Assembly: GCA_964388715.1 (NCBI GenBank)
Contig: CAYMBN010000010.1
Span: forward strand, 1-53,162
Direction: 5' to 3'
From: an uncultured Methanosarcinales archaeon
GTDB lineage: Archaea > Nanobdellota > Nanobdellia > Woesearchaeales > CAYMBN01
Length of the DNA stretch: 53,162 nucleotides
The stretch's first letter is position 1. Each line of letters begins with the position of its first letter. The notes under the pieces are model-generated. The model saw only the letters and a list, made by a program, of their open reading frames with translations. It did not search any database and was not told the DNA's origin. Both the position numbers and the translations under genes were made by a program. This document shows positions 8,890 to 43,300 of the stretch, in pieces.

Positions 8890-8977
8890 AGCCTCTGATG
8901 GGAATTGCACCCACGACCTGCGGCTTACTTTGAAGTATCTTACAAGGCCGCCGCAATAGCTACTATGCTACAGAGGC
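8890..8977 (-). tRNA. tRNA-Thr(TGT) with a 15-nt intron at canonical 37/38 (intron 8926-8940)
   Basis: Minus strand: GCCTCTG TA GCAT..TTGC G GCGGC CT TGT A [AGATACTTCAAAGTA] A GCCGC AGGTC GTGGG TGCAATT CCCAT CAGAGGC T. TATA box TTTATAAA at 9002-9009; CCA not encoded. Confidence 0.93.
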
Positions 8978-9012
8978 ATATAATCAAAAGATAAACCACT
9001 ATTTATAAAATT

Positions 9013-9035
9013 TTTGGAAATCAAGGATTTTCAAA
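9013..9035. repeat. REP-like palindrome (triloop family)
   Basis: TTTGGAAATC-AAG-GATTTTCAAA (one G.T pair), followed by the linker AAACAGTTT. Confidence 0.6.
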
Positions 9036-9118
9036 CAGTTTAAAAATTATTTAATTTTTAAAATTTATTGTTTTATTTAACCAAAAGGTTTAAATACAAT
9101 CTTTTCTTAAATATCAAT

Positions 9119-9766: not shown

Positions 9767-9841
9767 TTTCGACTCCGTCGAAAACTTTTAGAAAAAGTAA
9801 AGCTTTTTCTAAACGGTTTAGGAAATTGAAAATTTCCTAAA
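9767..9841. repeat. Cluster of three REP-like palindromes
   Basis: TTTCGAC-TCC-GTCGAAA (9767-9783), TTTAGAAAAAG-TAAAG-CTTTTTCTAAA (9787-9813), TTTAGGAAATT-GAA-AATTTCCTAAA (9817-9841). Confidence 0.85.
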
Positions 9842-15144: not shown

Positions 15145-15167
15145 TTTAGAAAACCATGTTTTCTAAA
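15145..15167. repeat. REP-like palindrome (triloop family)
   Basis: TTTAGAAAAC-CAT-GTTTTCTAAA, flanked by half-copies TTTAGAAA at 15121 and 15171. Confidence 0.8.
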
Positions 15168-15213
15168 AACTTTAGAAAACATTTAAAAATAAAGACATCT
15201 CATTCTTTTTCAT

Positions 15214-30360: not shown

Positions 30361-30403
30361 TTTAGAAAACTTCGTTTTCTAAACTGTTTCGACTTTGTCG
30401 AAA
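30361..30403. repeat. Pair of REP-like palindromes
   Basis: TTTAGAAAAC-TTC-GTTTTCTAAA (30361-30383) and TTTCGAC-TTT-GTCGAAA (30387-30403), joined by AAACTGTTT. Confidence 0.85.
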
Positions 30404-41379: not shown

Positions 41380-42039
41380 ATGAATGCCTTAAGTCATGAA
41401 TATTGTAATTTATTGCCAGAAGACCTTGGAAGCACTATGGGTAATTTATGGCCTGATGCTTTTAAATATTCAGGTCAAAAAGTTGATTCTCATTCTATAG
41501 ATAGATTATGTAATATCAAAACCAATGATCCTTTGATGAGAAAAATTATGGCAGGTATGTTAAATCATATTATTTTTGATGCAAGATTTCACAATTCAGA
41601 ATATTTTAAAAATAAGGTTTCACATGTAAAAGGAATAATCACCAAAAATGATGGTGTTATTCCAAGCCCTGAAACTTTTTCTCATGTATTAGTTGAACTT
41701 ATGATTGATGTTTACCTACATGAAAAACATCCTGAACTTGCTGGAAGGATACACAATGCTTTTGATAAGATACAATTAATACCTGCATTAGAAGAAGTTT
41801 CCCCACATTATGGTTTTAACCCTCAGACAGTTGGGCAAGCAATTAATAAATTTTTATCAGATGGTTGTCTTACATCTTACATTAACCCAGAAGCAATGTT
41901 TTCAACAGTTAGTCATTTCTTTGATGTTGTTATGAATACAAACCTAACACCTTACAAGGAACCTTGTTTAAGGATTATTGAACTATCGTATCCTTTAATG
42001 GAAGATTTTCCTTTACTTTTTCAAGAAATTAAACCATAA
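41380..42039 (+). CDS. AcpH/DUF479 (ACP phosphodiesterase) or Zn-phospholipase-C-like helical metallohydrolase
   Basis: MNALSH, GNLWPD, G..NHIIFD..FH, HVLVELMID..L match the spacing of the AcpH motifs MNxLAH/GNxxxD/HxxxD/DxxxD. Confidence 0.6.
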   Translation: MNALSHEYCNLLPEDLGSTMGNLWPDAFKYSGQKVDSHSIDRLCNIKTNDPLMRKIMAGMLNHIIFDARFHNSEYFKNKVSHVKGIITKNDGVIPSPETFSHVLVELMIDVYLHEKHPELAGRIHNAFDKIQLIPALEEVSPHYGFNPQTVGQAINKFLSDGCLTSYINPEAMFSTVSHFFDVVMNTNLTPYKEPCLRIIELSYPLMEDFPLLFQEIKP

Positions 42040-42072: not shown

Positions 42073-42214
42073 GGACCTGTAGCCTAGCCTGGTAAACATG
42101 GTTTAGGCAAATAGGGCGACAGCCTCCTATTTCAAAGCTTCGCTTTGTAATCCTTCAAAAAGCGAGCTTTTTGAAGTAAGCTGTAGATCGAGAGTTCGAA
42201 TCTCTCCAGGTCCG
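42073..42214 (+). tRNA. tRNA-Arg(CCT) with two introns (18 nt at 19/20, 42093-42110; 49 nt at 37/38, 42130-42178)
   Basis: Spliced product GGACCTG TA GCCT AGCCTGG|ATA GGGC G ACAGC CT CCT A|A GCTGT AGATC GAGAG TTCGAAT CTCTC CAGGTCC G is a typical archaeal tRNA-Arg. The D-loop intron forms a full hBHBh'. Confidence 0.92.
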
Positions 42215-42217
42215 TTC

Positions 42218-43300
42218 ATGCAAATATCATTTATTACAGAAGGATTCAGAATGTTTTGTAATAGATTCAGGACTCCAACTAAATACAAAGGTAATGCACA
42301 ACAAATATGTGAACAAATCATCAATGACTGCTGGAATGGTACTTTTTTCCAAACATCAAAAAGAAACTTTTCTCAATTCTGGACAAGAGATTTTGGAATG
42401 TGCTGTGAATCTTTAATAAAACTTGGTTACAAGAATAAAGTTAGAATGACACTTAACTATGCACTTTCAATCTTTCAAAAACACAACAAAATCACAACAC
42501 ACATTACTCCAAAAGGAAAACCAATTGATTTTCCCAATTACACACCAGAATCACTTGCTTACATTATACACTGTCTAAAACTCCTCGGAGATAAAAAATT
42601 AATAGAAAAGTACAAACCTTTTCTAAAACAACAAGTAAAATATTGTTATGATATTGCTTTTGATCCTGTGAATGGGATTGTTAGAAGGAAACAAAAATTT
42701 TCAACAATGCGTGATCATTATGTAAGAGATTCTTCAATGTACAATAATTGTATGTTAGCAATGTTATCAAATGATTTATACAAACTAAAATTAAACAACC
42801 CATTCGAATCTTATGATTTTGAAAGTATTTTAAAAAAATTATTCTGGACAGGCTCATATTTCCAAGATGACCTAAACAAAGAAAATTATATTAGCGGTGA
42901 CGCAAACATCTTTCCATTCTGGACAAAAACATTTACAGATAAACAAATGTTTAAAGCTTGTTTAAAATCAATAAACAAAACCAACCTAGATAAACCATTT
43001 CCACTTAAATACACTAACCAAAGATTAAAACATAAAGAAAACTCATACTCTTTCTTTGCACCAAACTATGAAGGAAACACACTCTGGCTTCATCTTGGTT
43101 TATGCTTTGTAAAAACAGTCAAGATGTTCAACAAAAAACTAGCTCTAAAGTATATCAACCAATACACTGAACTAATAGAAAAACATAAAAATTTATTAGA
43201 AGTCTTTAATCCAGATACTACACCATATAAAACTTTATTATACAAAACAGATTCATCAATGTTATGGGCAGCAATCTATTTAGAACTAATAAAATGTTAA
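42218..43300 (+). CDS. (alpha/alpha)6-barrel glycoside hydrolase-like protein (amylo-alpha-1,6-glucosidase/GH63-like)
   Basis: FWTRDF motif, DANIFPFW, YEGNTLW, LLEV, MLWAA. Upstream of two GT2 genes. Confidence 0.65.
   Translation: MQISFITEGFRMFCNRFRTPTKYKGNAQQICEQIINDCWNGTFFQTSKRNFSQFWTRDFGMCCESLIKLGYKNKVRMTLNYALSIFQKHNKITTHITPKGKPIDFPNYTPESLAYIIHCLKLLGDKKLIEKYKPFLKQQVKYCYDIAFDPVNGIVRRKQKFSTMRDHYVRDSSMYNNCMLAMLSNDLYKLKLNNPFESYDFESILKKLFWTGSYFQDDLNKENYISGDANIFPFWTKTFTDKQMFKACLKSINKTNLDKPFPLKYTNQRLKHKENSYSFFAPNYEGNTLWLHLGLCFVKTVKMFNKKLALKYINQYTELIEKHKNLLEVFNPDTTPYKTLLYKTDSSMLWAAIYLELIKC

Follow-up and report, generated by a model that had tools for sequence, protein, structure and literature searches.

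A dispersed double-hairpin repeat as a candidate source of the anticodon intron in an archaeal tRNA-Arg(CCU) gene

The anticodon intron of the archaeal tRNA-Arg(CCU) gene described here is best explained, at a probability that we place a little above even, as deriving from a dispersed DNA repeat of about 50 bases that forms two hairpins. By alignment and reciprocal models, which are partly circular, this intron appears to be a full-length member of an order-wide double-hairpin module, copies of which occupy tRNA genes and positions next to tRNA ends, promoter arrays, and the spaces separating unrelated genes. A 50-bp repeat found in free form and also as an entire intron that congeners lack makes one route of intron gain directly testable.

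The tRNA-Arg(CCU) gene and its introns

The window (the whole stretch of DNA analysed, 53,162 nt) is contig C10 of an archaeal genome of 1.3 Mb and 31 % GC, labelled G000. None of the genomes compared with it belongs to the same genus or family, and hence they provide no pair of empty and filled sites from close strains. The region 42093–42178, in which the sequence-only reading had seen tRNA introns assembled from palindromes, has as its outer limits the start of the D-loop intron and the end of the anticodon intron of tRNA-Arg(CCU). The features of this locus are:

42073–42214, plus strand: tRNA-Arg(CCU) gene, three exons, 75-nt mature form; missed by both default ARAGORN and Rfam
42093–42110, plus strand: D-loop intron (position 20/21), 18 nt, strict BHB
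42130–42178, plus strand: anticodon intron (37/38), 49 nt, relaxed BHB; apparently one complete double-hairpin module
42129–42151, plus strand: first hairpin of the module, closed by a loop of 3 nt and containing a T.T mismatch as in intergenic copies; the outermost pair uses exon base A37
42153–42176, plus strand: second hairpin of the module; the final four bases double as the BHB strand pairing with exon positions 32–35

Intron limits were set by intronless orthologues (L005, L022 and L024) together with a BHB-scored search. Removal of both inserts leaves a complete cloverleaf, a 75-nt tRNA-Arg(CCU) that matches the intronless orthologues. The D-loop intron has four of four pairs in the central helix of a strict BHB, and the anticodon intron has three of four, with the intron-side helix absent. 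Judged from their sequence, both inserts are archaeal BHB tRNA introns, with excision as the predicted outcome. A single EndA gene was found in G000 (177 aa; C2:54148-54678, minus strand; TIGR00324 above cut-off), with no second subunit at E ≤ 1, though many introns of this genome have non-canonical or relaxed junctions. The BHB form at the anticodon is absent from the MFE fold of the bare precursor, and in most homologues of the anticodon intron a long-rod fold rivals that with two hairpins.

When introns are allowed, ARAGORN gives the gene a SeC identity; this is a mis-call, and the gene is tRNA-Arg(CCU). Contigs of four DNA sequencing runs contained no intronless allele of the G000 strain, and the variant letters and one 49-base skip seen in these contigs belong to less alike contigs from other organisms. 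A search of viral contigs returned 0 matches, and a metagenome scan using the exon–intron motif hit a real tRNA in 1 of 38 stretches. With regard to the surroundings, the ORFs on either side of the tRNA (window 42218–43300 and 41380–42039) have no Pfam match at E 0.001; the downstream one begins 3 nt past the tRNA and is followed by two genes read from the sequence as glycosyltransferase-like.

Across G000 as a whole, 54 introns (1725 nt) were catalogued in 33 of 38 tRNA genes, at the D-loop, 37/38, the variable region, the T-stem and the T-loop, in a census that may be incomplete and in which a few boundaries were set by hand; Rfam finds just 15 tRNA genes. In genes for Ser, Glu, Lys and Arg (C1:214769, C3:122495, C11:12350 and C2:142335, respectively), the T-loop introns (32–36 nt) are related, and the T-loop sequence of the exon recurs inside each of them, which suggests tandem duplication and transposition. 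The long anticodon introns of Trp, Met and Cys genes (C2:33495, minus strand; C1:262371, plus; C2:114967, minus) are likewise similar to each other and harbour C/D-box-like motifs; they are probably guide-RNA introns. Within the window, a tRNA-Thr(UGU) gene at 8890–8977 (minus strand) has a 15-nt intron at 37/38 and a palindrome array just upstream (9010–9062). Elsewhere in the genome, a GUG anticodon occurs in two different tRNA genes (C1:13682 and C12:6170), an Ile-type tRNA has a UAU anticodon (C8:41293), and the 16S rRNA gene (C15:2268-3877, minus strand) extends to 1610 nt against a model of 1478 positions.

The double-hairpin module inside and outside tRNA genes

The anticodon intron is present in 10 of 401 genomes of the order (G000 and nine others), spread over 10 families. 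Alignment of 17 two-hairpin Arg introns of 45–49 nt, 11 from Arg(UCU) and 6 from Arg(CCU), after setting aside six non-tRNA matches and two versions with a single hairpin, gives a mean column identity of 75 %. Both hairpins covary, with 82 % of cells paired and 22 double changes (0 of 500 shuffles), counts that are inflated by relatedness and by a structure derived from the same sequences. A comparison with relatives had been proposed by the sequence-only reading as a search for intronless alleles, and such orthologues exist: congeners of carriers lack the intron at the same site in genus g32 (three of three other genomes), g5 (two of three, the third having a different intron) and g192 (the sole other genome, the unpublished G303). 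A different intron is present in genus g84, and two shorter versions in g56. This patchy spread is also compatible with repeated precise loss.

A model built from Arg introns only (R1) was run on 150 genomes of the order, and 24 of its non-training loci were inspected. Six are tRNA introns (Arg, Gly, Ile and Asn) and four are clear intergenic double hairpins, the remainder being partial or inside duplicated RNA-gene ends (four) or chance-like (10). Deeper searching brought the intergenic copies to 4–5 in each of two genomes, G023 and G148, where they lie next to unrelated genes. The intron and intergenic consensus sequences have in common the unpaired T.T mismatch of hairpin 1, the linker, the arm lengths and the 3′ end, and a free copy in G000 itself (C9:38726-38775) has the same length and end letters as the anticodon intron. 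A signature pattern returned 12 matches in 401 genomes versus 3 for a reversed control, and an HMM of 14 intergenic copies scored the anticodon intron at 20.5 bits, a value reached by none of 200 structure-preserving nulls, and 30 other G000 introns at no more than 8.7 bits.

A second model (R2) was made from eight intergenic copies of three other genomes and holds no G000 sequence, but is partly circular, as these copies were found via R1. In G000 it ranks the anticodon intron second of nine matches, at 35.7 bits; six of the others lie in promoter-type arrays and one is just 3′ of tRNA-Gln. At E ≤ 0.001 it produced 28 matches in 12 of 150 order genomes, eight of them being the training copies; the 20 non-training matches include four tRNA introns, and six come from the unpublished genomes G120 and G131. 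Of 19 intron loci tested with R2, the element scored in 14 and was missed in five; the one match of R2 in approximately 130 genomes of other orders is itself a genuine module. In three promoter arrays of G000, hairpin 2 is of the intergenic type and almost the same as in G023, and intermediate forms join the order-wide module subtype to a local AT-rich palindrome subtype. Using a sequence-only HMM of the 16 other Arg introns, two free G000 copies score 10.0–10.4 bits, within the decoy range (top 11.3), and a pattern for the tandem intron-type unit was uninformative in 61 genomes, as its 21 matches are mostly unstructured. For most intron carriers no intergenic copy was detected, and for most genomes with intergenic copies no module intron was detected.

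The module also occurs in tRNA genes in reverse. In Thr(GGU) of G074 a module-type intron of 49 nt is reversed, with a central helix of four pairs including one G.U, and both Asn introns of G000 are module-type on the minus strand (20–22 bits). Pairing of the trailing end with exon bases 32–35 is perfect for Arg(UCU) and Gly(UCC), in forward orientation, and for Thr(GGU), reversed. Repeats of 2 bases flank several introns and the copy in the Gln trailer, and are absent around intergenic copies; no consistent target-site duplication was seen in the flanks of module copies.

A separate observation is that some intact tRNA genes, and one 16S rRNA 3′ end, have beside them a partial duplicate of their own end, with a hairpin-rich spacer in between that is in some cases of module type:

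L063, L070, L080, L081 and L092 (G034), L210 (G077) and L212 (G094): loci with duplicated RNA-gene ends

These data can be set against a reading in which an ordinary structured intron spreads only among tRNA genes, as in the Thermoproteales, and is often lost, with the intergenic likeness resulting from convergence of AT-rich hairpins and from search selection. Introns of different tRNA types in G000 do resemble one another, with 16 pairs scoring at least 26 versus 2.7 ± 1.6 under the null, some of these pairs presumably being C/D-box guide introns. The best partners of the Arg anticodon intron are introns of Asn (scores of 43 and 40) and Lys (34, with an exact 15-mer), where the null maximum averaged 29.5 and reached 40 at its highest in 100 runs. 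Similar introns in at least two tRNA types of one genome, the Thermoproteales-type criterion, are thus found in G000 for Arg, Asn and Lys. The outcome of the sequence-only decoy comparison, and the lack of k-mer enrichment from the local palindrome family (below), also favour spread among tRNA genes. Convergence does not readily account for the features that intron and intergenic consensus have in common (T.T mismatch, linker, lengths of the arms, end letters), nor for an intergenic HMM that singles out the anticodon intron or for the excess of signature matches over the reversed control, and introns in both orientations require a DNA step. Confinement to tRNA genes strikes us as quite unlikely.

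The direction of travel might also be the opposite, with the module arising in the anticodon arm of tRNA-Arg(UCU) by fold-back and tandem duplication, and then escaping to other tRNAs and to intergenic sites, to be amplified there. This arm has the same three bases on either side of its loop, and the intronless form matches the centre of one intergenic subtype at 11 of 12 bases. Arg(UCU) moreover supplies 11 of the 17 aligned introns and forms a perfect BHB helix, in 2 of the 17 the intron end is an exact reverse complement of the arm over 9 bases, and the four T-loop introns of G000 with inner exon copies lend the idea further weight. The flanks of intergenic copies, which R1 does not cover, are no more exon-like than chance on either the 5′ side (129 and 289 of 2000 nulls as high) or the 3′ side (1506 and 1758 of 2000), and the central part ranks Arg(UCU) second of 41 tRNAs, after Thr(UGU). 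We deem birth within Arg(UCU) unlikely, and retain insertion of a dispersed repeat as the preferred reading.

Local AT-rich palindromes of the genome

The sequence-only reading had sought the source of both introns in palindromes elsewhere in the window, named by their positions 9787, 15145 and 30361. All three are present, and the two hairpins that it described in the anticodon intron are confirmed at 42133–42147 and 42153–42176. The arrays concerned are:

9767–9841, no strand: array of AT-rich palindromes (local subtype) close to a promoter; no more than distantly related to the anticodon intron
15145–15182, no strand: local palindrome array with an 11-mer match to the D-loop intron, a match due to chance
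30361–30403, no strand: tandem palindrome of the local kind, with a TATA-like box downstream

The family is intergenic, mostly just upstream of TATA-like boxes, and has 25 strict copies in G000 versus 1 for a reversed control; 26 tandem elements were found, none inside tRNA genes, and 0 in each of three shuffled genomes. For the intron tests a catalogue of 39 local-family loci was used.

Assembly of both introns from pieces of the palindromes at 15145, 30361 and 9787 is highly improbable. The quoted sequence matches exist, and the D-loop core was said to equal the reverse complement of the 15145 palindrome centre; an exact 11-mer does link 42094–42104 to 15151–15161, but at chance level. It has 8 genomic copies versus 4.5–6.3 expected (Markov orders 1–5), shuffles that keep the structure yield a match of equal length in 14 of 200 cases (plain dinucleotide shuffles, in which the hairpin is destroyed, in 0 of 200), and 11-mers of the family occur in 6 of 54 introns versus 5.1 ± 1.8 expected. 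For the anticodon intron, proposed to consist of pieces of 30361 and 9787, the longest exact family match is 9 nt and is equalled in 157 of 200 shuffles.

Nor are palindrome k-mers enriched in the 54 introns, with a count of 78 at k=9 versus 71.9 ± 11 for dinucleotide shuffles and 66.8 ± 12.8 for structure-plus-dinucleotide shuffles; for k=8–13, 44–237 of 300 of the latter nulls were as high. Enrichment is seen under a single-base hairpin shuffle (k=9, 78 versus 32 ± 9) and with random intergenic DNA as donor in place of the family (1 of 300 as high), which would favour the local palindromes, but was set aside because neither control keeps A/T runs and the effect disappears once these are kept. 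Family k-mers match random intergenic DNA as often as they match introns (74.6 ± 16.7), and hallmark 8-mers number 0 in the 54 introns versus 27–30 in the family. With neither hallmarks nor k-mer sharing above null level, the anticodon intron falls outside the strict local subtype. The local AT-rich profile gives it 4.1 bits (61 of 200 nulls as high) and puts the intergenic subtype just marginally above null (11 of 200); for the 17 Arg introns jointly, which are not independent, it reaches 2.81 versus a null of 0.96 ± 0.49. Conversely, R2 gives the three named palindromes 10–14.5 bits, which is not significant. Three introns, in the T-stem of two Ser genes and the D-loop of a Cys gene (C9:46341, minus strand; C1:247056, plus; C2:114967, minus), are nearer to the local subtype than other introns are, a resemblance that speaks for the local palindromes and that is borderline after multiple testing (for the best two, 10 and 1 of 200 nulls).

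The distribution of the introns among relatives is also at odds with a local origin, as both occur in genomes with 0–1 strict copies of the family. Of 26 Arg genes from relatives, 10 have an insert at this D-loop position, eight of these 10 being in genomes with 0 strict copies, and two further inserts in these genes lie at other positions. All nine other genomes with the anticodon intron have 0–1 strict copies each, versus 25 in G000. Because there is no k-mer enrichment, and because the introns exist in lineages without the family, the literal palindrome reading is refuted. The intron in the D-loop is of the ordinary BHB kind, old, at a widespread position and unrelated to the repeat. The broader idea of a palindrome carried as a tRNA intron, and rendered harmless by splicing, survives for the anticodon intron only, and by way of the other, order-wide subtype, the local palindromes having dropped out as the source; that insertion created this intron is what we infer. 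There is weak support for the local AT-rich palindromes being a locally amplified and diverged subtype of the module superfamily, and as such cousins rather than donors. It follows that k-mer tests against the most obvious repeat of a genome can overlook a real donor subtype.

A possible route of intron gain and its relation to known systems

Woesearchaeota-like archaea possess a superfamily of 45–55 bp repeats, each with two adjacent hairpins and a short CC-containing linker. As the module sits in tRNA genes in either orientation, it most likely moves as DNA. Upon landing at 37/38 with a last end, of whichever orientation, that can pair with exon bases 32–35, it would generate a BHB-like junction, from which the sole EndA of G000 is predicted to excise the insert, so that the insertion could persist as a new intron. 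The promoter arrays of G000 would share ancestry with the module, and intergenic copies may serve as a protein-binding operator or cruciform. In its fullest form, this proposal would have the element insert either way round, turn at once into a BHB intron where its trailing end pairs with the exon, represent the first sequence donor identified for archaeal tRNA introns gained de novo, and have amplified descendants in the promoter palindromes of G000; this is possible, although we hold it at somewhat under an even chance.

By analogy, candidate mobilisers are a transposase of the HUH type, acting in trans on single strands, or template switching during replication. No Y1 transposase was found in G000, the module does not flank the IS200-like genes of G023 and G148, and 11 Y1 loci in G023, G148 and G041 contain no significant full module. 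The neighbours of 23 module loci (46 ORFs) include no common mobility gene at E 1e-5.

These tRNA genes are like known archaeal BHB-intron tRNA genes in having several introns per gene, sites in the D-loop, at 37/38, in the T-stem and in the T-loop, and BHB junctions; they differ in that one G000 intron appears to be a dispersed genomic repeat over its whole length. The single EndA of 177 aa resembles the situation in ARMAN-4/5. An Asgard preprint did not find a general route of arrival, and the literature searched, which mostly excludes subscription journals, describes no dispersed non-tRNA donor of tRNA introns and nothing on the module. In the Thermoproteales, introns are reported to transpose between tRNA genes (Fujishima et al. 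2010, via PMC4090602, bioRxiv 10.64898/2026.10.13.758758). There, as here, a single genome has related introns in several tRNA types, and a step at DNA level is supposed; in the present case, related sequence is also found away from tRNA genes, at more than one tRNA position and in either orientation. Gain of an intron in Caldiarchaeum tRNA-Thr is tied to a 1.8-kb integrating element bearing a recombinase (PMC3293823). Both cases implicate mobile DNA and have duplicated tRNA fragments nearby, although in G000 a non-coding repeat of 50 bp is itself the intron.

The closest parallel outside tRNA genes is found in REP/BIME elements, which are described as short palindromes, single or in mosaic clusters, between unrelated genes and without MITE-type signatures (PMC3184786). 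The module is similarly a dispersed, multi-copy set of palindromes with mosaic clusters and unrelated neighbours. It differs in being AT-rich and often promoter-proximal, in showing no GTAG foot, in having no RAYT/Y1 gene found flanked by it, and in having copies inside tRNA genes as introns. Overall, the module works like a REP/BIME-type repeat, one copy of which apparently serves as a BHB intron.
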